Counted from the first letter of the stretch, positions 7,605 to 28,872 are shown. The stretch is 32,000 bases of DNA from Methanoculleus sp. (GCA_030156625.1 JASGMC010000010.1:1-32000), one strand, 5' to 3'. The notes: generated by a model not told the origin, from the letters alone. Translations and numbers: made by a program.

Positions 7605-8492
7605 TCAGGGCCGGCAGGACTCCATCGACCCCGGAGCCGCCCCGAGATCCAGGTAGATCGAGCCGAATTTGACCGATGCGACGGCGGCCGGGTCGAAGGG
7701 CGGGGCAAAGACCTCGAGCCGGCGCCCTCCGGGGTGCAGGTCTTCGACGATGCCGAGGGCGAGGACGAAGTTCTCGGCGTCGTTCAAGGAGACCAGCCTT
7801 CCGGCGACCCCGCGTTGGTTCCTCATGTCGGGCACCCGGCCCTGGAGCCCGAGCCCCCGGAGCAGGACTTCCTGCGATCGCGCGTCGGCAAAATAGAATG
7901 CGAAACGCTCTTCGCGGTAGCACCGCCGCCCGGTTGCGGTCCGGGCGACGGCCGCAGGGGATACGGGGACCCGGTGGATCGCAATCTCCGGGTGCCGGGC
8001 GAAGTTCGCGAGCAGCCGCTCCAGCTCACGCCCGCGCTGGAGGGCGACGATGCGGGTGGGGCGGAGGAGGTCGATCATCTGGAACTGAAACTCGGTGCCC
8101 ACCCCGCCGGCGACGAGCCCGGGCGAGTCGATGACGGTGGCGCGGGCCGAACATTCGGCGGCTTTCTCGACGAGGCGCTTTGCTCCCGTGAGCGTCTGGA
8201 TAAAGTGGCCCCCGGGGGAGGTCGAGCCGACGAACCGAAGATACGGCTCCGGCGTGCCGGGGTACAGGGCCATCCCCTCGGTCGTCGGCGGGCCGAGCCG
8301 GGACTGCCCGGTGTCGCAGTCGACGTATGCCGTCCTCGTGCGTGCGGCCGCCTCGTCGACGAGGTAGCGGCAGAGCGTCGTCTTTCCGCTGTCCGTCCCC
8401 CCGACGACGTAGACGCTTTCCGGGGCATCCGACCCCGGGAACGCCGCGACGAGATCGTCCCATCCTTCCCCGATGCTGATCAAGCCAGGCAA
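7605..8492 (-). CDS. Clp1/Grc3-family P-loop protein (COG1341-type polynucleotide 5'-hydroxyl kinase-like)
   Basis: VYVVGGTDSGKTTL P-loop followed by VDCDTGQSRLGPPT, the family-typical D-x-D-x-GQ...PP pattern. Confidence 0.65.
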   Translation of the reverse strand: MPGLISIGEGWDDLVAAFPGSDAPESVYVVGGTDSGKTTLCRYLVDEAAARTRTAYVDCDTGQSRLGPPTTEGMALYPGTPEPYLRFVGSTSPGGHFIQTLTGAKRLVEKAAECSARATVIDSPGLVAGGVGTEFQFQMIDLLRPTRIVALQRGRELERLLANFARHPEIAIHRVPVSPAAVARTATGRRCYREERFAFYFADARSQEVLLRGLGLQGRVPDMRNQRGVAGRLVSLNDAENFVLALGIVEDLHPGGRRLEVFAPPFDPAAVASVKFGSIYLDLGAAPGSMESCRP

Positions 8493-8608
8493 GCCTCCTC
8501 TCAGGGATGTTGCAGCCCATGGTTATAGTGCTTGACGCAACGCTCCTCCCGGGGGGGCTGCACTACCCGGGAGAGCCTTTATCAGGAGTGTATCCCTACT
8601 CGCAGCGC

Positions 8609-9130
8609 ATGAACAGAACGGCAGCAACCACCGGGCCGGTGCCTGCAGCCATAGGCAGGGTGTTTCCCACCCTCATGGCCACGTCGATCACCGGCAGGGT
8701 CGTCACCCTCCCGGGCGACGCGGAGGGCGACGTCTCGCTCATCGTCCTCGTCTTCCTGGAATCCGCCAGTCCGATGACGGATTCCTGGAGCGGCCCCTTT
8801 GCCGGGGCGTTCACTGAAAATCCCCGGGTGACGACCTACCTCGTTACGGTCGTCGGCGACAGCCTCATCGGCAGATCCCTTGCCGACCGCATCCGGCAGG
8901 GCCTCGCGGGCGGCGTCCCTCCCGCGAAGCACGATCTGGTTCTGACGGTGCCGGCAGATATCGAGGGGTGCCGGCGGGCCTACGGAATAGACGATCCGTC
9001 GCTCGCCTACATCTACCTCCTGGACGGGCGCGGCATCATCCGCTGGATGGAGAAGGGGACCACCACACCGGAGGGGCTCGGCAGCCTGATCGATACGGCC
9101 CACACGATGCTCGGACCGCTCATGGAGTGA
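8609..9130 (+). CDS. Hypothetical protein
   Basis: ORF with high-GC third-position codon bias. The start was placed at the internal ATG 8609 (MNRTAATTGP). No motif was recognised with confidence. Confidence 0.45.
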   Translation: MNRTAATTGPVPAAIGRVFPTLMATSITGRVVTLPGDAEGDVSLIVLVFLESASPMTDSWSGPFAGAFTENPRVTTYLVTVVGDSLIGRSLADRIRQGLAGGVPPAKHDLVLTVPADIEGCRRAYGIDDPSLAYIYLLDGRGIIRWMEKGTTTPEGLGSLIDTAHTMLGPLME

Positions 9131-19162: not shown

Positions 19163-19645
19163 ATGGATACCAAACACAGCGTTCTGGAGAAATACTTCGG
19201 GTATACGTCATTCCTCCCCCACCAGGAAGAGATCATCGATTCCGTGCTCGCGGGGACGGACGTCCTCGCCGTCATGGCGACCGGGGGCGGCAAGTCCCTC
19301 TGCTACCAGCTCCCGGCCCTCGTCTTCGGCGGGCTTACGGTCGTCGTCTCGCCGCTCATCGCCCTGATGAAGGACCAGGTCGACGGCTTGCGGGCAAACG
19401 GCATTCCGGCGGCGACGATCAACAGTTCGCTCGGGCAGGGGGAGCGGAGGATCATCGAGCGGGTGATCCTCGAAGGCCGCATCCGGGTCCTCTACGTCTC
19501 GCCGGAACGGGCCGTGCAGCCGTTCTTCCTCTCGCTCCTTGCACAGGCGGATGTCCGGCTCATTGCCATCGACGAGGCGCACTGTATCTCCATGTGGGGG
19601 CACAAGGCACAGCCAACTGTGCTATCTCACATCGATCCGTTATAA
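19163..19645 (+). pseudogene. recQ: recQ 5' fragment (helicase motifs I to II), truncated by an insertion after codon WGH
   Basis: FLPHQEEII, Walker A MATGGGKSLCYQLPAL, motif Ia VVVSPLIALMKDQV and motif II DEAHCISMWGH. RecQ similarity ends at 19605; 13 unrelated codons then run to a stop. Confidence 0.9.
19594..19605. repeat. Left copy of the 12-bp direct repeat GTGGGGGCACAA at the recQ/insert junction
   Basis: Exact 12-mer, identical to 28505-28516. Confidence 0.9.
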
Positions 19646-20397: not shown

Positions 20398-20482
20398 GAC
20401 AGCCCGCAGGCAAAGCACGTTGGCTCTCTTCATGCTTAAGGATGTCCTTGTTTTTGCCTCCGGTTCGAAGGGAGATTACCAA

Positions 20483-23400
20483 ATGAGCACGAAACGTATG
20501 GAGAGAGTCTTTCCTCTTCTCATGACGGTGCTGATGATAGCCACGGCGTTCATTCCTGCCGTGAGCGCCGCAGAACCGAATACATCGAATGTGGATACCA
20601 CGTCCTGGATAAATACCTCCGCGGAGATTGAGAGTGCCGGAGAACCCGGTGCGGATACCTCACCGGCGACAGACAGCACCCGCGTGGTCACCGGTTCCGG
20701 CAAGATCCGGCTCAAAACCTACGACCCGGAGACCAGGACCATCCGGATCACGGATGAGGGCAGATCCGCCGCCGATGGAGACCTTGAGATCCGGCTGGTG
20801 AACACCACACCGGATCTCGGCACCTTCACCGAGATCTTCGAGATCACCGCGCACAGCACGATCGCCCTCGACGAATCAGAGGACTTCCGGGCCACATGGG
20901 CGCTCCACAACGGGGAGGAAAACGTCACCCGGGCCGAGTGGTTCGTCTGGGAGAACCGGTTGCATACCGTCAAGATCCCGATCATTGAGTACCGGAACGT
21001 CACCCTTGAGATTAATACATCTGAAAATCGTACTTTTGAGAATGTTACCCGTGGAGAAACTCTTCCTGAAACCGCCACGGTCCGGGAACCTTATATCGCC
21101 GGCACCGAGACCCGGGAGCGGTACTGGTATGAGTGGGTGCCGTTTGACCCGGCGGGGCAGACGCTCAACGCCGAAGAGGCGCGGACCTTCAAGGTCGTCT
21201 ACACCAAGCCCGCCGAGATCGGGCAGGTCGATATCAACACCGCCCCGGTCTTCCGGGGCGTCGCGTGCCCGGAGATGACCTGGTGGAGCACTGCCTGGAC
21301 CGCGCGGGTGCCGATCACAATCATCAACCCGCCAGCGGTCGATAACTACTCTCACTGTGAGGTCGTCTCGTTCCTTCCCGGCATGCAGAGCGACTTCGAT
21401 GACGTCCGGTTCGCGACCGACGACGGCACCGTTCTCGACTACTGGAAGGAGTCCTATACTGCATCCGACTCGGCCGTCATCTGGGTCAATCTCCCCGCCG
21501 GTGTGACCTTGATCTGGATGTACTACGGGAATGCGGCAGCCACCGATACCGGCAGCAGAGATAACGCTTACATCCTCTACGACGACTTCAACGGCCCGGA
21601 TCTCGATACGACGATCTGGACGGACACACATCCCGACGGCCATTACATCTCCAATGGTTGGATATACGATGTCCGAACTCAGGAAACCGGCATTCGTGGC
21701 GTTCTGGTATCCAATGATAATGTGATCGCCAACGGCGAGCCGGTGATCGTAGAGATGCATATCCACGCCGATGGCCTCGCCAGTCCCGGCTACTGCTCCG
21801 GGTATCTTCCTATCTTTATTGACCACATCGACCACGACTCCGCGATCCGGAACGGTCTGCTCTGGTACAAGCAATCGTCAAACTGGTGCCGGTACGTCCT
21901 TGTGAACGGTGTTGCATCATGGCGGCCGGGAGCATCGCGTGGCCTCGCGGTTGGCGGCGACTACTACAACACCTGGATCATCACACCGTCCAGTCAGACC
22001 CATACTGTCAGTGGGAGCGCCTCCTACACCGATGTATTTGCTGGCACGACCGGAATCTCAAACCATCGGATGGTCATTCTGGGCGGCGATAACTCGGTTT
22101 CCGGCCGAGTCATGCGGATGGACTGGATCCGGGCGCGGAAGTACGTCGAAACCGAACCGACATTCGCCTACGGTACACCGGAGTTCGAACCGCCAGTGGC
22201 GAACTTCACGGCCTCGCCAATCACAGGCGCCGCCCCGCTCACCGTCCAGTTCACCGACACATCGACCGGCAGCCCGACCTCCTGGGCGTGGGACTTCACA
22301 AACGACGGATCATGGGACAGTTATGCGCAGAATCCGTCCTACACCTACAACAACCCCGGCACGTACTCGGTCAAACTCAGGGCCACGAACGCCGACGGGG
22401 ACGATGAGGAGGTCAAGACCGATGTCATCACGGTGACTGCACCGATCTACTATGTCTATGCTGAAGCGGGAGATAGTGGAACATCAGTATACAACATGGC
22501 AAAAGGATTCTGGGAGACGATCAAAGACGCCCAAAGCGGATGGACCACGTGGAGAGACTGGCGTAACGAAGATGACATTATTAAAAGCGATTCCTCTCGG
22601 GAAGGCCACTGGAGGAAAACAGCGGCAAATCCTCCAGGCCATGCGGATCAATGGGTCGAAAGAGCGGATTTTGCATACTTTACGGGTCATGGGTTTCCCA
22701 ATGGTTTCCTTTTTGAGGAGCCAGATGAAGATTCCAATTTAACCGAAGCACACGCGCAAAACATATCGCTGGGGTCCGGGCGCACCAAATGGGTTGTACT
22801 TGATTCATGCTCAAGTCTCAATGAAAGCAGCCAGACAAACTGGCATGCGTCCTTTAATGGACTGCGGATGCTGCTGGGCTGGGATTCGCCAACAACTCCG
22901 ACGAATATACCTATCGGTCGCGGAGAGATGTTTGCAAAACTAATGATGGGGCAATATCCAGATCCTACCGCTTCCGAACTCTCAATATTCGAAGCTTGGA
23001 CATGGGCAGCAGTGTATACGTGGGAAGGTTACTCCCCTGGAGAGGACATATATACTGCGATCATATACGACACAAATTGCTTGAATGATATGCTCCCCGG
23101 ATGGGGCGGGTATTCAACCTCTCCAAGCGGTTTCCTCGAATATAACAAGACACTTGTAAAAAATGTGAATGAGGGAAAAGATGTTGAAAAATCGACTATG
23201 CTGGATTCAACTAATGGCAGATATTCGATACATACTTCTGTGCCCACTACATCAGGTAAACTCATGACGTATATATCTGAAAAACCAGAGTATACGGAGG
23301 AGTGGGTAAGTTCGCTGGCAAGGAACCTCGGAATGTCCGGGAAGAAAAGAGAATCGGAAAAGGCATATTACGCTGATGAAACCGAAGAAGATGAGTTCTA

Positions 23401-23998
23401 TTTCGTCGTGCAAAAGGATGCCAAAATCATTGCATTTAAAAAATATCATCAGCAATCGGGAGAACCCCTTTCAGCCGAAACAGCGACTGAATCAGTACAT
23501 GAGTTCTTGGAAAATGCCGGCCTCATGTTCCCCGATGCAACAGACGCCAATATCGGCTATAATACCGGTGAAAGTATTTCTCCTTCGGGAGAACGTGTCC
23601 AAACTTGGAAACAGATCGTAGTAACTTTCCCCCGCGAACTGAACGGCCTGAGGGTATGGGATTCACAAATCCTTGCCGATGTGGATCCACAAGGTAATGT
23701 CGTCAGATTATTTATCAGCTGGCCGGATTATAAGCCACATAAAGAGGTGTCACTGAAGACACCTGAACAAGCCTTTGAAGAGTTCCAGAAGGAATTCGCC
23801 AGCATTCATGGGGAAAAAGCGGAAAAAGTTATCGTAACCGATGTTTCGCTCGGGTATTCCTCATTGCCGATCTCTGGAACACAACGGTGCCTTCAGCCGA
23901 CATACGTCTTCGAGGGGTCCGTTCAACGGGGAAGTTTGACCGATGAGTTCGAACCTATCATTATTGAAGCAAGCGGTGAAGGGGTTGATATTGCATGA
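20483..23998 (+). CDS. Large secreted mosaic surface protein: signal peptide, unknown N-domain, DUF2341, ConA/LamG-like, PKD, domain A (putative Cys-peptidase-like), module B
   Basis: GGAG lies 8 nt upstream of ATG 20483. Signal peptide: MSTKRMERVFPLLMTVLMIATAFIPAVSA. DUF2341-like: WWSTAWTARVPITI...FDDVRFATDDGTVLDYW...VIWVNLP...MYYGN. PKD: APLTVQFTDTSTGSPTSWAWDF...YTYNNPGTYSVKLRATN. Domain A: FTGHG (His codon 22688-22690) and VVLDSCSSLNES (Cys codon 22808-22810). The C-terminal ~260 aa are paralogous to the next gene. Confidence 0.85.
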   Translation: MSTKRMERVFPLLMTVLMIATAFIPAVSAAEPNTSNVDTTSWINTSAEIESAGEPGADTSPATDSTRVVTGSGKIRLKTYDPETRTIRITDEGRSAADGDLEIRLVNTTPDLGTFTEIFEITAHSTIALDESEDFRATWALHNGEENVTRAEWFVWENRLHTVKIPIIEYRNVTLEINTSENRTFENVTRGETLPETATVREPYIAGTETRERYWYEWVPFDPAGQTLNAEEARTFKVVYTKPAEIGQVDINTAPVFRGVACPEMTWWSTAWTARVPITIINPPAVDNYSHCEVVSFLPGMQSDFDDVRFATDDGTVLDYWKESYTASDSAVIWVNLPAGVTLIWMYYGNAAATDTGSRDNAYILYDDFNGPDLDTTIWTDTHPDGHYISNGWIYDVRTQETGIRGVLVSNDNVIANGEPVIVEMHIHADGLASPGYCSGYLPIFIDHIDHDSAIRNGLLWYKQSSNWCRYVLVNGVASWRPGASRGLAVGGDYYNTWIITPSSQTHTVSGSASYTDVFAGTTGISNHRMVILGGDNSVSGRVMRMDWIRARKYVETEPTFAYGTPEFEPPVANFTASPITGAAPLTVQFTDTSTGSPTSWAWDFTNDGSWDSYAQNPSYTYNNPGTYSVKLRATNADGDDEEVKTDVITVTAPIYYVYAEAGDSGTSVYNMAKGFWETIKDAQSGWTTWRDWRNEDDIIKSDSSREGHWRKTAANPPGHADQWVERADFAYFTGHGFPNGFLFEEPDEDSNLTEAHAQNISLGSGRTKWVVLDSCSSLNESSQTNWHASFNGLRMLLGWDSPTTPTNIPIGRGEMFAKLMMGQYPDPTASELSIFEAWTWAAVYTWEGYSPGEDIYTAIIYDTNCLNDMLPGWGGYSTSPSGFLEYNKTLVKNVNEGKDVEKSTMLDSTNGRYSIHTSVPTTSGKLMTYISEKPEYTEEWVSSLARNLGMSGKKRESEKAYYADETEEDEFYFVVQKDAKIIAFKKYHQQSGEPLSAETATESVHEFLENAGLMFPDATDANIGYNTGESISPSGERVQTWKQIVVTFPRELNGLRVWDSQILADVDPQGNVVRLFISWPDYKPHKEVSLKTPEQAFEEFQKEFASIHGEKAEKVIVTDVSLGYSSLPISGTQRCLQPTYVFEGSVQRGSLTDEFEPIIIEASGEGVDIA

Positions 23999-25047
23999 CC
24001 GGAAAAGATGAGAACTGTCGGAAGATGAGAGCACCTGTGGTAAAAGGTTCGATATCAACATTTTTTGTCCTCTGTCTTCTGCTTACCACCTTTATCGTTT
24101 CAGCAGGATGCACATCGCAGACCTCATCGGCAGTCCCTTTGCCGGACGTCACGCCTCACGATAATTCCCAAGAATACAGAGATCTCAATCCAGAGGAGAA
24201 TAACACCCTGGAGAACAGCAGCTCGCACGATCCGCGGTTTTTTAACGCAAGAGAGGGCATGTATTCGATAAATGCTTCGTTCCCCGATGTTTCCAAGAAA
24301 ATCATGGTGTACACCCCCGAAAAACCGGAGTATACAAAGGAATGGGTGAGTTCGCTGGCAAAGAAATTCGGAATGTCCGGGAAGGTAAGGGAGTCGGAAA
24401 AAGCATATTACGCCGATGAAGCCGAAACAGATGACTATTATTTCGTTGTGCTGAAGGATGATCGAAGTATCAGCTTTAAAAGTTATCATCAGCAGTCAGG
24501 AGACCCTCCTTCACCCGAAAACGCAACAAAATCGGTGAAGGAATTCCTGGAAAGCGCCGGCCTCGCGTTCCCCGGTGCAACAGAAGCCGGGATCAACTAT
24601 GATACCGGGGGAAGTATTTCGTCTTCAGGGGAGTATGTCCAGAACTTTAAACAGATCGTAGTAACGTTCAACCGTGAGTTGAACGGCATCAGCGTATTGG
24701 GTTCGAGTATCATGGCCCGTGTAGATGCGCAGGGAAATATTATCGAATTATTTTTCCACTGGCCGGACTACAAGCCTTACAAGGAAGTTTCGCTGAAATC
24801 CCCCGAACAGGCCTTTGCCGAGTACTTGGAGTACCAGAAAGATTCGCTGTATATCACAGGAGCCCCGATGAAGCCGGAGAAAGTAGTGGTAACCAGGGTC
24901 TCACTGTTTTACCGATCAACGGGGAAATATGTCGAACCGATATATGTATTCCAGGGATACGGGCAGCAGGGGGAAGTGACACAGCCCTTCGCCTCGGTGT
25001 ATGTCGTGGCAACGGATGAGGGATTGGAAAGATGGCTTGTGTACTGA
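23995..25047 (+). CDS. Stand-alone module-B lipoprotein (paralog of the C-terminus of the preceding protein)
   Basis: Its start overlaps the upstream stop (ATGA at 23995-23998); ATG 24025 is an alternative. Lipobox FIVSAGC. Residues ~90-350 align with the last ~260 aa of the 1192-aa ORF. Some stretches show high nucleotide identity by eye (24321-24470 vs 23279-23430). Confidence 0.8.
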   Translation: MTGKDENCRKMRAPVVKGSISTFFVLCLLLTTFIVSAGCTSQTSSAVPLPDVTPHDNSQEYRDLNPEENNTLENSSSHDPRFFNAREGMYSINASFPDVSKKIMVYTPEKPEYTKEWVSSLAKKFGMSGKVRESEKAYYADEAETDDYYFVVLKDDRSISFKSYHQQSGDPPSPENATKSVKEFLESAGLAFPGATEAGINYDTGGSISSSGEYVQNFKQIVVTFNRELNGISVLGSSIMARVDAQGNIIELFFHWPDYKPYKEVSLKSPEQAFAEYLEYQKDSLYITGAPMKPEKVVVTRVSLFYRSTGKYVEPIYVFQGYGQQGEVTQPFASVYVVATDEGLERWLVY

Positions 25048-25382
25048 AAGAGCGTTCCGATGAACTCAAAAGAGCACCGGAAAGGGTTGACAAGTTCATT
25101 CGCTACGGGGAACCGATATACTACATGCACAAGATTCCCGTACACGCCGGATACAGAGGCAGTTATCTCCAAGCCAGTTGAAAGAACCGGGTATTCAAGG
25201 GACGAATTCTTTGCTGGCAAGTCCCCGGTACCTGCGGGGGAAAGCGTGCGGATGTACCCATCCGTCACCTTTCCCGATGGCGGTTTTCTTGAGCGCAAAG
25301 CGACGTTCACCACCGTCCTGAGCCGTTCCGTACCGGTACGATATCGGGCTGATCGACTGGACGACCGAGGAGCGGATCCACG

Positions 25383-26840
25383 ATGGAGACAGAACCGACA
25401 GCGAGAACGAGATCAGGACCTGCTGGCACACAGATTCGGCGACACCAGCACCAGCACCAGCACCAGCACCAACACCGCCCGCACCCGACACACATCTACA
25501 GCAGCGCCGGCACCTACACGGTAACGCTGAACGTCAGCGATGCTTGTGGGTACGATATCAGCAGCCAGACCCTTATCACCGTCACCTCGGACCAGACCGT
25601 AATGAATCCGGCCCTCTCCTTTGCATCGCCAGACACCCTGATCCTGCGCGAAGGGAAGAATTTCGTCTCGACGCCCTGCTACCTCACATCCGGACACGAT
25701 ACAGCGGGTACGGTCTTCCCGGACTTCGGTACCGATGTCCGGGGATACAGGTTCGAAAACGGCCGGACGGTAATCCTGACGGCGCAGGATGAAATTCGGT
25801 CGCTTGAAGGATACATAATCTACTCGGACGGGTACCACGAGATTTCCCTTCAGTTCGAAGATCCCCAGGTACATCCGACAGTTACAAAAGACCTCGACGA
25901 AGGCTGGAATCTCGTCGGCTTCTATGGTTTGAGCCAGGAATGTGCACGGGACACGCTCATTTCCCTCAGGAACGTGTGGTCGGAGGCAAAGGGCTGGGAT
26001 GCCGGGTCGCAGGAATACGAGACCTCCTTTATCAGGGATTCGACCGGCGATACCAGCGACCAGCGCCTGATGTTTCCGGGGAAGGCTTACCTGGTGTACA
26101 TGACGGAAGAGGGAACTCTGTTCCGCTCGTACTACCTGACGTATTCCTTCTGCGCCGAATGGGTGGGCGACTATCACGGCATGCAGACTCCTCTCTTCAG
26201 CGCCGAGGAAGAGGCCGAAGGCTTCTACGACACGCTTGAAGGGTCGAGTTCATGGACCGGCCAGTTCATCAACGGCAACGACGCCGCGATGGAACGGCAC
26301 TGGAAGGACCCGGCCTTCGGCGGGATTGATTCGAACCACATCGACAACGCACACCTGGCCTTCTTCGTAGGCCACGGGTGGGAGGGCGGGTTCGTCTTCG
26401 GGACCGCCGCCGACGATTACGAGCTGAACTACAGCGAGGCGCGCTGGGGCAACACGAAGACCGACTGGATTATTCTCGGATCGTGCAGCACCCTGAATGA
26501 ATCCACGCGGGAGCACTTGGAGGATGCCTTCGAGGGGCTCCATTCCATATGCGGCTTCGATACCATCGGAGGCACTCACCCGGATATGGGGTGGTATTTC
26601 GCCCAGCAACTGATGGATGGTGAAACCATCTGGGACGCATGGTCTGCGGCGACAGATCAGTACGTGTTCCCGAACGATGGCAGTCTACGGTCAGCGGTTC
26701 TCGCCGCGGACATTGACGGTGACTTGAGCACGCATGATTGTCTTGATGACCATATTTACGGTTACGGATCGTCGATTAATCCGCCCGGTGATCCACCGGC
26801 ATTTCAATACGTGACAAAGCCATGTATACGGGAGATTTAA
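25383..26840 (+). CDS. Second domain-A protein (PKD C-terminal half, unknown beta-rich region, domain A); probably 5'-degraded, with no signal peptide in frame
   Basis: HIYSSAGTYTVTLNVSD is the end of a PKD domain. Domain A: FFVGHG (His codon 26373-26375) and WIILGSCSTLNES (Cys codon 26484-26486). The matching PKD segment FGDTSTS lies upstream in a different frame. Confidence 0.6.
   Translation: METEPTARTRSGPAGTQIRRHQHQHQHQHQHRPHPTHIYSSAGTYTVTLNVSDACGYDISSQTLITVTSDQTVMNPALSFASPDTLILREGKNFVSTPCYLTSGHDTAGTVFPDFGTDVRGYRFENGRTVILTAQDEIRSLEGYIIYSDGYHEISLQFEDPQVHPTVTKDLDEGWNLVGFYGLSQECARDTLISLRNVWSEAKGWDAGSQEYETSFIRDSTGDTSDQRLMFPGKAYLVYMTEEGTLFRSYYLTYSFCAEWVGDYHGMQTPLFSAEEEAEGFYDTLEGSSSWTGQFINGNDAAMERHWKDPAFGGIDSNHIDNAHLAFFVGHGWEGGFVFGTAADDYELNYSEARWGNTKTDWIILGSCSTLNESTREHLEDAFEGLHSICGFDTIGGTHPDMGWYFAQQLMDGETIWDAWSAATDQYVFPNDGSLRSAVLAADIDGDLSTHDCLDDHIYGYGSSINPPGDPPAFQYVTKPCIREI
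25443..25476. repeat. Hexanucleotide microsatellite (CACCAG)4-CACCAA-CACC
   Basis: Read directly. It encodes HQHQ.., TSTS.. or PAPA.. depending on frame. Confidence 0.9.
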
Positions 26841-27791
26841 ATGACAACAAAACAAGTTGTAATCGGAATTGCTGCCCTCTTGCTAATTATTGCCGGGACA
26901 GCACTGGTGCCAGCGGTGTCTCCGCAGGATGATGAAGGTTCAAACAGGGGAATCGAGATCGTCGGACCATACGGCGTGCAAAGTGTCTCTGAGATCGCTC
27001 TCGGTACCGCCCTCACGCGGTACCCCGAACAGGCAATGGTCTACAGGACGGTCGATACCATCGTATCGAAGGACGACGCGCTGAAGATAGCGGAGAAATT
27101 TGGAGTGATCGGACCACTTGAGGAAGATACACTGTCGTATTACATCAAAGACGATCCCTATACGTTTGATATTGAGAAGGAAGGCGGTTGTCTATCCTAT
27201 ACATGGGAAGGGCGGTGGAACGAAGGCGAAGGATACCGGGATTTCCCAGAACACCTCCCGACCGACGAGGAGTGCCGGAAGATCGCCGAAACGTTCCTCG
27301 CCTCTCAATGCTCTCATACCCGAGGGAGCTGTGTATTCTGGTGTTGCACATGGGAAGGGGATTTTTTCGAACCGCTCGGGAGGGACACCCATCGTCACGT
27401 ACGAAGATCGTGACGTCCTCTTCTCCGACACCCTGAGCGGCCTTCCCGTGGCCGGAAGCGGGATCCGGGTCACCATCGGCGGGGGCGGTGACATCCTTGA
27501 GGTCACCAAACGCTGGCGCGACGCCGAACCTTACAAGGAGTTCTCTATCCTCTCCCCAGAGGAAGCGGTTGAGGAGCTCAAACAGACCGGGGTCGTCACC
27601 GCGGTGAGTTCACCGAAGAAGGCGGTCGTCGACGAGGCCAAGCTCTGCTACTATGCAACCCCGCCGGCACCGAGCAGCCGTACCTCAAACCGACCTACTA
27701 CTTCCGCGGCACCGTAGAGGGAGAAAAGGAGGCCGGGACCTTCTACCAGTACGTTCCGGCGGTCCCGGAACTCGGGAAGGGGTTGTACTGA
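26841..27791 (+). pseudogene. Third module-B gene with an N-terminal TM anchor, interrupted by two opposite frameshifts
   Basis: TAAATG junction with the upstream gene, and GGAGA 6 nt upstream. Module-B similarity runs in frame 0 to ~27305, frame +1 to ~27670 (LNALIPEGAVY...ILEVTKRWRDAEPYKEFSILSPEEAVEEL), then frame 0 again (EQPYLKPTYYFRGT... stop 27789-27791). Confidence 0.7.
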
Positions 27792-27819
27792 TCCCCTCTC
27801 TCCGTTTTGCAAGACGCTG

Positions 27820-28011
27820 ATGCCCATGATGAACCAGATCGCAACCGGACTCGTCATTCTCGTGCTGCTCGTTGCCGGGACGGCACTGATACCGGTGGAA
27901 TATCCGCCGGACGATGAAGGCACAAGCGGGGGAATAGTGCTGTCGAAGACAAAAATCGGGATAATCCTGGTGGTCGCCATTGCGCTCTCTGCAACCATCT
28001 TCATGGAGTGA
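27820..28011 (+). CDS. Small two-TM protein, or N-terminal relic of a fourth module-B gene
   Basis: AGTALIPVEYPPDDEGTSGGIV parallels AGTALVPAVSPQDDEGSNRGIEIV at the N-terminus of the 26841 gene. Only 63 aa. Confidence 0.4.
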   Translation: MPMMNQIATGLVILVLLVAGTALIPVEYPPDDEGTSGGIVLSKTKIGIILVVAIALSATIFME

Positions 28012-28319
28012 GAGAGTTCAAGGATTTCTTCACGCGTCAGCGACATTTTCCTTGAATAACAAATATTTGCTCATTATATGTAGATCTATTCTTAATCTGC
28101 TCTCTAATTCTTGATTAAGGAACAATTGATACCCAGGTTAAAAAATTATGCCATAGTTGAACAGTTACCATCGGTTATCATAAGCGGGTCAGATATTTAT
28201 CAGAATGGGTCGACAGGACAGCATCTGGTCGTTATCAGTTACTATGATGCAGATTTTCCCATGGTTATCGCAGATACTTATGTGTAACTCCCATTTAGTT
28301 CGCGATATGATTGACGATG

Positions 28320-28504
28320 GAGAACGAGATAATTCGCGCCGGTTCAATGTTCACCGACACCTCCGATGCCTCGCCAACGAAATGTTACTGGACTTCGGTG
28401 ACGGTACGAACTCGACCATGCAGAACACAACGCATACTTACGAATCGCCCGGTAGTTACAACGTCACGTCCCGTACGTGGAACGACCACGGGAGCGATAC
28501 GGTG
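28320..28504 (+). pseudogene. PKD-domain remnant with a 1-nt frameshift, cut off by the right insert junction
   Basis: Frame 0 reads MFTDTSDASPTKCYW, then frame +2 reads DFGDGTNSTMQNTTHTYESPGSYNVTSRTWNDHGSDTVVG. tactggacttcggtgacggt lacks one G relative to tac tgg gac ttc ggt gac ggt. Confidence 0.7.
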
Positions 28505-28872
28505 GTGGGGGCACAACTTCCGGCCGGAGCCGGGCGGTGCTCGCGGGCAATCTTGTGGTGCCGCTCACCGAGCCGCGTCCGGAGGGCATCGTCGCGCCGG
28601 AGACCGGGGAGGACTACGACGAGGCGCTCTTCCTCCGGCTCCGCCGCCTCCGGAAGGTCGTTGCCGACCTCGATCGCGTGCCGCCGTTCGTCGTCTTCCA
28701 CGACCGGAGCCTCAAGGAGATGGCGAAGATCTACCCGGGCACCGGCGTCGCCCTTCTCCGGGTCTACGGGGTCAGCGAGGCGAAGCTGAAGCGTTATGGC
28801 AGGAGGTTCCTCGACGCCATCGATAAGCATTGCGCCGAACAGGGGATCGGACCGGAGCAACGGAGCGGGTGA
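28505..28872 (+). pseudogene. recQ: recQ 3' remnant: right 12-bp repeat plus WGHNFRPE (motif II continuation), then an internal deletion joining out of frame to the C-terminal/HRDC region
   Basis: 28506-28529 reads W G H N F R P E. From ~28534, in the +1 frame: AVLAGNLVVPLTE...YDEALFLRLRRLRKVVADLDRVPPFVVFHDRSLKEMAKIYP...VYGVSEAKLKRYGRRFLDAI, which is an HRDC domain. Confidence 0.85.

Follow-up and report, generated by a model that had tools for sequence, protein, structure and literature searches.

A membrane-associated PepSY/FTP-like module linked to DUF6345 domains in Methanoculleus and in other archaea and bacteria

A 32,000-nucleotide stretch of DNA from Methanoculleus sp. (GCA_030156625.1 JASGMC010000010.1:1-32000), referred to here as the window, carries a cluster of five genes on the + strand built from two modules, domain A and module B: A1B1, B2, A2, a broken B3 and a 63-amino-acid open reading frame (ORF), B4 (Table 1). 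Module B had been picked out in an earlier reading made from the nucleotide sequence alone (the sequence-only reading). The four copies placed here by that reading were all found at their positions on the + strand, matching one another with BLASTP E values of 1e-104 to 8e-11, and the signature motifs it quoted are present in B1 and B2. Domain A is a real family, DUF6345 of Pfam (PF19872), scoring 160.6 bits in A2 and 79.6 bits in A1 against a gathering cut-off of 26.9 bits.

Table 1. Positions of the A and B genes and modules in the window, counted from its first nucleotide
Feature	Position	Strand	Description
A1B1 gene	20420..23998	+	1192-aa secreted multidomain protein: signal peptide, DUF2341, PKD, DUF6345 (A1), fused B1
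A1 (DUF6345 domain of fusion)	22475..23194	+	Local hidden Markov model (HMM) E 2e-113; FAYFTGHG ... WVVLDSC with invariant GHG and C
B1 (fused onto A1 C-terminus, no gap)	23195..23995	+	~267 aa; local B HMM E 2e-130
B2 gene	23995..25047	+	350 aa: hydrophobic N-terminal segment, low-complexity linker, B module at nt 24235-25044 (local HMM)
A2 gene	25383..26840	+	485 aa as the ORF stands; partial PKD and DUF6345 (A domain nt 26196-26828); Pfam E 5e-47, aa 259-473
B3 (stand-alone B gene anchored by a transmembrane (TM) helix, interrupted)	26841..27791	+	Start 1 nt past A2 stop; tblastn and DNA alignments
B4	27820..28011	+	63-aa ORF; N-terminal ~31-39 residues (TM helix and PPDDEG motif) B3-type, remainder unrelated

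The A1B1 gene probably starts at the ATG at 20483 (MSTKRMERVF...), and its product matches DUF2341 at residues 325 to 401 (E value, 8e-17), PKD_4 at 591 to 672 (E value, 2e-14) and DUF6345 at 723 to 900 (E value, 3e-22). The junction with B2 reads ATGA, the B2 ATG overlapping the A1B1 TGA, and the B2 protein is 100% identical to the hypothetical protein PWR21_432 of a Methanoculleus sp. metagenome-assembled genome (MAG). These two genes have a GC content of 0.46 to 0.49, against 0.62 to 0.69 in the flanks. The VSAGC lipobox that had been assigned to B2 does follow its hydrophobic segment (...TTFIVSAGC), but with Ser at −3 it is imperfect compared with [LVI][ASTVI][GAS]C. In many B2-type relatives the hydrophobic segment likewise closes with G-C or A-G-C, and from these features B2 may be lipoprotein-like.

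The second half of the cluster is damaged. The 5′ end of A2 is affected and encodes no signal peptide, while orthologs of 500 to 928 amino acids carry one. This end crosses a (CACCAG)n hexanucleotide repeat at ~25440 to 25475 that reads, depending on the frame, as HQHQHQ, TSTSTS or PAPAPA. At 25040 to 25520 of the window the upstream PKD part of A2 lies in a different frame, and the other-frame segment upstream of A2 resembles the N-terminal region of the 928-amino-acid ortholog (MYPSVTFPDGGFLER versus TYPTVTFPDDDSFER); A2 is therefore 5′-truncated or frameshifted. The A2/B3 junction is TAAATG. B3 had been described as frameshifted and is indeed disrupted, but by two compensating frameshifts rather than one. 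Its three collinear pieces, 26841 to 27305 (frame 0), 27304 to 27666 (frame +1) and 27663 to 27791 (frame 0), are 79, 75 and 82% identical (tblastn) to the intact ortholog P0178; intact orthologs have 315 to 316 amino acids. Compared with orthologous DNA, the lesions are a +1 insertion near 27307 to 27312 and a −1 deletion near 27667, which jointly restore the frame. The 360 nt between the two indels remain open and well conserved, so the lesions must be very recent or assembly errors, making B3 either a pseudogene or an artifact of assembly. In the source MAG, only its first 190 amino acids are annotated (P0208). B4 matched P0176 with 61% identity over 31 amino acids (tblastn), and the HMM found no B signal downstream of it; it is the stump of a further tandem copy of the B3 type. 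The A1B1-B2 pair is intact. Provided that the indels are real, the second unit, A2-B3-B4, is in decay.

The surroundings of the cluster were also inspected. An N-terminal fragment of a RecQ-like helicase (Pfam DEAD; E value, 2e-22) lies on one side at 19163 to 19645, and an HRDC domain (E value, 2e-18) lies on the other at 28477 to 28872, both on the + strand and in matching order. The GC content of the whole A/B cluster is 0.46 to 0.58, versus 0.62 to 0.69 for the flanks, and the cluster looks like an island in place of the middle of a recQ-type gene. A lone PKD-domain fragment (Pfam E value, 2e-9) at 28390 to 28500, within an ORF at 28205 to 28789 between B4 and the HRDC fragment, is additional debris, at the island's right edge.

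Similarity among the four B copies, as judged from BLASTP alignments, goes far beyond what chance would be expected to give. B1 and B2 share 56% identity over 286 amino acids (E value, 1e-104), B2 and B3 29% over 240 (3e-23), B1 and B3 23% over 248 (2e-16), and B3 and B4 40% over 55 (8e-11). The Nei-Gojobori method gave 1.27 synonymous substitutions per site (dS) and 0.32 nonsynonymous substitutions per site (dN) for B1 versus B2. The resulting dN/dS of 0.25 indicates that both copies are maintained, and the pair is an old duplication under purifying selection. A recent duplication or gene conversion, proposed from the apparent DNA identity of the two copies, is ruled out by the overall dS and by a DNA identity of only 78 to 79% at 23255 to 23480, where the proportion of synonymous differences (pS) in the best stretch is 0.43. 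Synonymous divergence is uneven across 23255 to 23944, with pS of 0.43 to 0.48 in the first half and 0.7 to 0.84 in the last third. By eye, the relative P0004 resembles B1 at its front and B2 at its back, and P0006 shows the opposite; the two observations suggest older recombination between tandem paralogs.

A word-seeded search with B2 yielded nine relatives, all Methanomicrobiales-like, one of which is a Kelch-PKD-DUF6345-B fusion. Peptide-pattern scans were narrow, giving one locus among genome contigs and nine in metagenomes. A B profile was built from the nine relatives and scored against 1.84 billion representatives of clusters at 50% identity. It gave at least 1294 matches at an E value of ≤1e-3, 456 at ≤1e-10 and 64 at ≤1e-30, from methanogens and bacteria. 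Most relatives have 300 to 340 amino acids and, at the N-terminus, either a TM helix or a hydrophobic stretch closed by G-C. The named members, from Methanoculleus, Methanofollis, Methanoregulaceae, Chloroflexota and Clostridia, are all annotated as hypothetical proteins. At the Pfam gathering score no family covers the B copies of the window, PepSY (PF03413) had no match at an E value of ≤1 in B1, B2 or B3, and NCBIfam and PADLOC searches returned no relevant match. The conserved columns of B hold Gly, Pro, Ala and aromatic residues and no invariant polar residue, and B therefore fits a binding module rather than an enzyme.

An AlphaFold2 model of B2 residues 86 to 350, computed with a 12-sequence alignment, had a predicted local distance difference test (pLDDT) score of 84.5 and a predicted TM-score (pTM) of 0.77. 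Where two subdomains had been supposed, the model shows three alpha+beta units (residues ~17 to 78, 89 to 182 and 185 to 253), in each of which a helix packs against an antiparallel sheet. Foldseek against the Protein Data Bank (PDB) gave five matches for this model at an E value of <1e-3: the uncharacterized 5coz (1e-7), two chains of YycI (2o3o; 5e-6 and 9e-6), the PepSY-containing C-domain of YpeB (5boi; 1e-4) and the fungalysin propeptide (4k90_B; 3e-4); the vibriolysin propeptide (3nqz_A) was found at 0.03. B1, modeled independently within a fused construct, returned the same list together with YycH. The Foldseek probability was 1.00 to 5boi (E values, 1e-4 and 2e-5) and to YycI, though with TM-scores of no more than 0.4 to 0.55. 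With a PepSY-like fold defined as an N-terminal helix on a three- to four-stranded antiparallel sheet, occurring in tandem and similar to solved PepSY proteins, B as modeled has such a fold, and its predicted units 2 and 3 are the counterparts of the FTP-PepSY pair in M4/M36 propeptides. No significant repeat was detected by hhalign among the three units (probability, ≤19%), with only the leading S/T-x-E-E-A helix aligning.

Profile matches to named families were found mainly among the relatives. FTP (PF07504; gathering cut-off, 21 bits) was above its cut-off in the B modules of the fused relatives P0029 (29.4 bits), P0024 (25.3 bits), P0016 (23.0 bits) and P0023 (21.6 bits), the match falling on the hairpins of unit 2. 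The cut-off was not reached by B1, B2 or B3 of the window, and 3 of 40 stand-alone B members matched FTP at an E value of ≤0.01. DUF4901 (PF16244; cut-off, 27 bits) stayed below gathering with 13.9 bits in B1, 13.1 bits in B3 and up to ~18 bits in relatives, and was matched at an E value of ≤0.01 in 8 of 40 stand-alone members (best, 2.4e-5). YycI (PF09648; cut-off, 29.7 bits) was matched in relatives only, also below gathering at up to ~18 bits. The PepSY-type likeness suggested in the sequence-only reading is borne out by Foldseek, which matched B to YpeB PepSY domains, to YycI/YycH and to two propeptides (fungalysin and vibriolysin), and by the FTP cut-off passed by some relatives. B is best read as a family new to Pfam, of extracytoplasmic tandem PepSY/FTP-like domains.

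Conservation of the A-then-B order in other genomes had been set beforehand as the check on a link between the two modules, and it proved to be conserved, among fusions as among neighboring genes, in both archaea and bacteria. Each of the 10 long B proteins scanned with Pfam has DUF6345 immediately N-terminal of B, and the parts further N-terminal vary (PKD, RCC1 and FG-GAP). Both modules occur in 24 of 164 fetched proteins; in 23 of these fusions B begins right where A ends, and one cluster (P0154) is reversed, with B before A. Across ~14 independent loci, B is fused to A or begins 1 to 140 nt after it on the same strand, and is often present as two to five tandem genes. Fused loci include L006 (Methanoregulaceae) and L010 to L013. 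Separate genes occur in Methanofollis aquaemaris, with a 414-amino-acid A (CP036172; L016, 6777 to 8021) followed by four B genes (RJ40_00480-00495; L016, 8027 to 11929), and in Methanoculleus, where a 928-amino-acid PKD-A precedes one B gene, a 500-amino-acid A precedes five (L030, 10001 to 14870) and a 509-amino-acid A precedes two. Within the four- and five-B arrays (L016 and L030) the B proteins are 313 to 318 amino acids long and 65 to 84% identical. Distant members show A with B (P0205, with a 298-amino-acid A, and P0157, with a 260-amino-acid A) or A with two B (P0207), and an A-centered look-up found B directly after A on a bacterial contig of 74% GC. Intact A proteins have signal peptides; at the N-terminus, stand-alone B proteins carry either a TM helix or a lipobox-like Cys. 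Overlapping or abutting start and stop codons, as at the two junctions of the window, join such genes. The claim that B always directly follows A stands as a common order only: in the window, with its A-B-B order, B2 and B4 each lie behind another B copy and not behind A, and B-only loci and RCC1 or PEGA partners exist.

Three loci deserve separate description. On the 74%-GC contig (L032, 7457 to 9071), the DUF6345 gene has an arginine-rich, nonsense-looking C-terminus and B continues in an overlapping frame at 8280 to 9068; a single A-B fusion gene has probably been broken in two here by an assembly frameshift. In Methanoculleus taiwanensis (L017/L018, 6134 to 12569), an Lhr-type helicase and a metallophosphatase precede two B genes that are 27% identical. 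On a related metagenome contig (L001/L007, 3294 to 7549), two large genes of the RHS/YD-shell type (DUF6531, TEN_YD-shell) come after an ortholog of B2, along with a fragment of a transposase, a context that is polymorphic-toxin-like.

Among 16 diverse A domains, one Trp, the G-H-G, one Phe, one Cys, one Gly and one Trp are invariant. The His and Cys are ~40 residues apart, each after a hydrophobic stretch (FAYFTGHG and WVVLDSC), and in the fused model they lie at the ends of beta-strands, but at a pLDDT of ~50. In clan CD cysteine peptidases (caspase, legumain and gingipain), which have the caspase-hemoglobinase fold, a His, within a His-Gly, and then a Cys likewise stand at the C-terminal ends of hydrophobic strands, and we take the GHG...C pattern of A to recall this arrangement. 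No Pfam or PDB-sequence match to a peptidase was found for A, and Foldseek returned none for the A part of the model. From its invariant residues A is probably a Cys/His hydrolase; that it might be a peptidase is a hypothesis. The literature yielded no functional study of either DUF6345 or DUF4901, the lone mention being a DUF6345 protein in a table of the Tannerella forsythia vesicle proteome.

On this basis we lean toward a reading in which B is a PepSY/FTP-type chaperone, inhibitor or tether, the dedicated partner of a secreted DUF6345 domain. Both modules would be exported to the cell surface, where B would bind A either in cis, fused to its C-terminus, or in trans, encoded by a translationally coupled downstream gene and anchored by a lipid or a TM helix. 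B would serve as a folding chaperone and/or inhibitor of A and would keep A at the membrane until its release or processing, much as M4/M36 propeptides act on their protease and YpeB is proposed to act on SleB. The repeats, fold class, anchors, signal peptides and conserved fusion and synteny are observed; physical A-B binding, the inhibition or chaperoning of A and any catalytic activity of A are what we infer.

PepSY domains have a combined chaperone and inhibitor role, whether encoded in cis (M4) or by a separate gene of one operon (sleB-ypeB) (PMC13556211). M4/M36 propeptides are intramolecular chaperones and inhibitors whose FTP and PepSY domains embrace the protease, and YpeB, encoded after sleB, has a TM anchor and three PepSY domains that are proposed to embrace, stabilize and restrain SleB (PMC13556211). 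Like the propeptides of M4 (thermolysin, vibriolysin and LasB) and M36 (fungalysin) peptidases, B is made of helix-plus-beta-sheet units, with Foldseek matches to 4k90_B and 3nqz_A, and in the fusions it is covalently attached to a secreted enzyme-like domain. Unlike them, it has one more unit at the N-terminus, is often encoded separately as a membrane-anchored protein, also in tandem arrays, and has DUF6345 with its GHG...C pattern, not a zinc metallopeptidase, as partner. An M4/M36 propeptide is N-terminal to a zinc-metallopeptidase catalytic domain and is autocatalytically cleaved off; B falls outside this definition, lying C-terminal to DUF6345, with no metallopeptidase domain in any A-B protein scanned. 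In the sleB-ypeB layout, as with A and B, a gene for an enzyme or enzyme-like protein comes directly before one whose product is anchored at its N-terminus and carries three PepSY-type units (match, 5boi). However, SleB is a lytic transglycosylase where the partner of B is DUF6345, B has no helical-bundle domain and is also found fused to its partner, and it occurs in archaea and non-sporulating bacteria. A profile search of PDB sequences detected no sequence-level homology between B and YpeB. YycI/YycH and 5coz (EUBREC_2869) gave the best Foldseek E values (1e-7 to 5e-6) and, together with DUF4901 (the YcdB/YcdC repeated domain), share with B membrane anchoring, an extracytoplasmic position and similar repeated units, but B scores only 13 to 18 bits against YycI and DUF4901 cut-offs of 27 to 30. 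YycH and YycI are regulators of the WalK histidine kinase, whereas no kinase is linked to B at the loci examined here; we know of no function for 5coz or DUF4901. In sum, the kind of module is known, and the B family, its partner and its arrangement are new.

Several observations weigh against a dedicated chaperone, inhibitor or tether of DUF6345. PepSY (PF03413) was not matched at an E value of ≤0.01 in the relatives (40 stand-alone and 20 long). The structure and profile searches suggested for B2 gave PepSY and propeptide matches in Foldseek, but profile searches of PDB sequences with the B alignment or with B2 alone gave no match; the same search with the A alignment found no solved relative. 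TM-scores from Foldseek were modest (0.3 to 0.55) because the arrangement of the units differs, the likeness residing in the repeated units. The single-chain model of A1B1 residues 686 to 1192 had a mean pLDDT of 63, with ~50 for the A part, so that its A-B interface is unusable, and Foldseek with this model returned only B-type matches. Known PepSY/FTP propeptides are N-terminal to their enzyme and B is C-terminal, and the enzymatic nature of A has as its basis just the invariant GHG/C and a low-confidence strand pattern. Finally, B is found apart from A: the B-B pair of M. taiwanensis has no DUF6345 within 10 kb, L004 has the same Lhr helicase-metallophosphatase context with one B ahead of the contig end, L009 has a B between two RCC1 proteins, and PEGA-B and RCC1-B fusions occur. 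These loci and partners also speak for B as a general-purpose extracytoplasmic scaffold or sensor of the YycH/YycI kind, which would anchor or organize various surface proteins or signal to membrane partners and have DUF6345 merely as its most frequent neighbor, without regulating it specifically. YycI and YycH are among its best structural matches, and the N-termini of P0143 and P0153, which have no Pfam match, look cytoplasmic-regulatory by eye. We consider such a general role fairly unlikely, since a link between A and B this dominant and tight would be unexpected of a generic scaffold: it includes fusion in either order and stop codons that overlap start codons, and its conservation reaches from methanogens to a bacterium of 74% GC.

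The arrays invite a different account, in which A is a secreted toxin-like effector that ends polymorphic surface proteins and B proteins are membrane-anchored immunity proteins, the tandem copies forming immunity repertoires comparable with those of polymorphic toxin and type VI secretion system (T6SS) effector-immunity loci. The C-terminal position of A behind highly variable N-terminal parts (PKD, RCC1, Kelch, FG-GAP and DUF2341) agrees with this, as do single A genes followed by two to five B paralogs of 65 to 84% identity, 'orphan' B-only loci, the RHS/YD-shell genes adjoining the B2 homolog in L001, and the lower-GC island of the window, which has one end of a recQ-like gene on either side. 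Covalent A-B fusion is common (24/164), however, and it would be unusual for a toxin to stay joined to its own immunity protein permanently; there was also no match to known toxin, immunity or defense models, and the B copies are under ordinary purifying selection, as seen above, with no evident diversifying selection. We consider an effector-immunity role distinctly improbable. B could also target A to a substrate or envelope component (S-layer, glycan or wall polymer) with no regulatory effect on A. Its place C-terminal to a putative catalytic domain is a frequent site of binding modules, it has no catalytic-looking invariant residues and it co-occurs with other surface-repeat domains, but targeting would leave unexplained the separate membrane-anchored B genes right after A and the B arrays, and the nearest folds belong to propeptides and to regulators that bind proteins rather than to carbohydrate-binding modules. 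We consider a pure targeting role very improbable.

In its broadest form, which we regard as speculative and quite unlikely, DUF6345 and B could constitute a widespread, undescribed two-component surface system of archaea and bacteria, carried on mobile islands, in which a secreted Cys/His effector enzyme is restrained by cognate membrane-anchored PepSY-like proteins. Tandem arrays of diverged B genes would then act as a repertoire for immunity or specificity, or supply docking partners that hold A-B fusions at the membrane through B-B contacts, as an archaeal counterpart of effector-immunity or zymogen-activation systems. The narrower reading favored here, of B as a PepSY/FTP-type partner of DUF6345, predicts an A-B complex, processing at the A-B junction and effects of His and Cys mutants. 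It would offer a first functional handle on DUF6345 and on the Pfam-less B family of at least 1294 clusters, and would extend the PepSY/FTP chaperone-inhibitor principle to a non-metallopeptidase partner, in a C-terminal or in-trans membrane-anchored layout, in methanogenic archaea.

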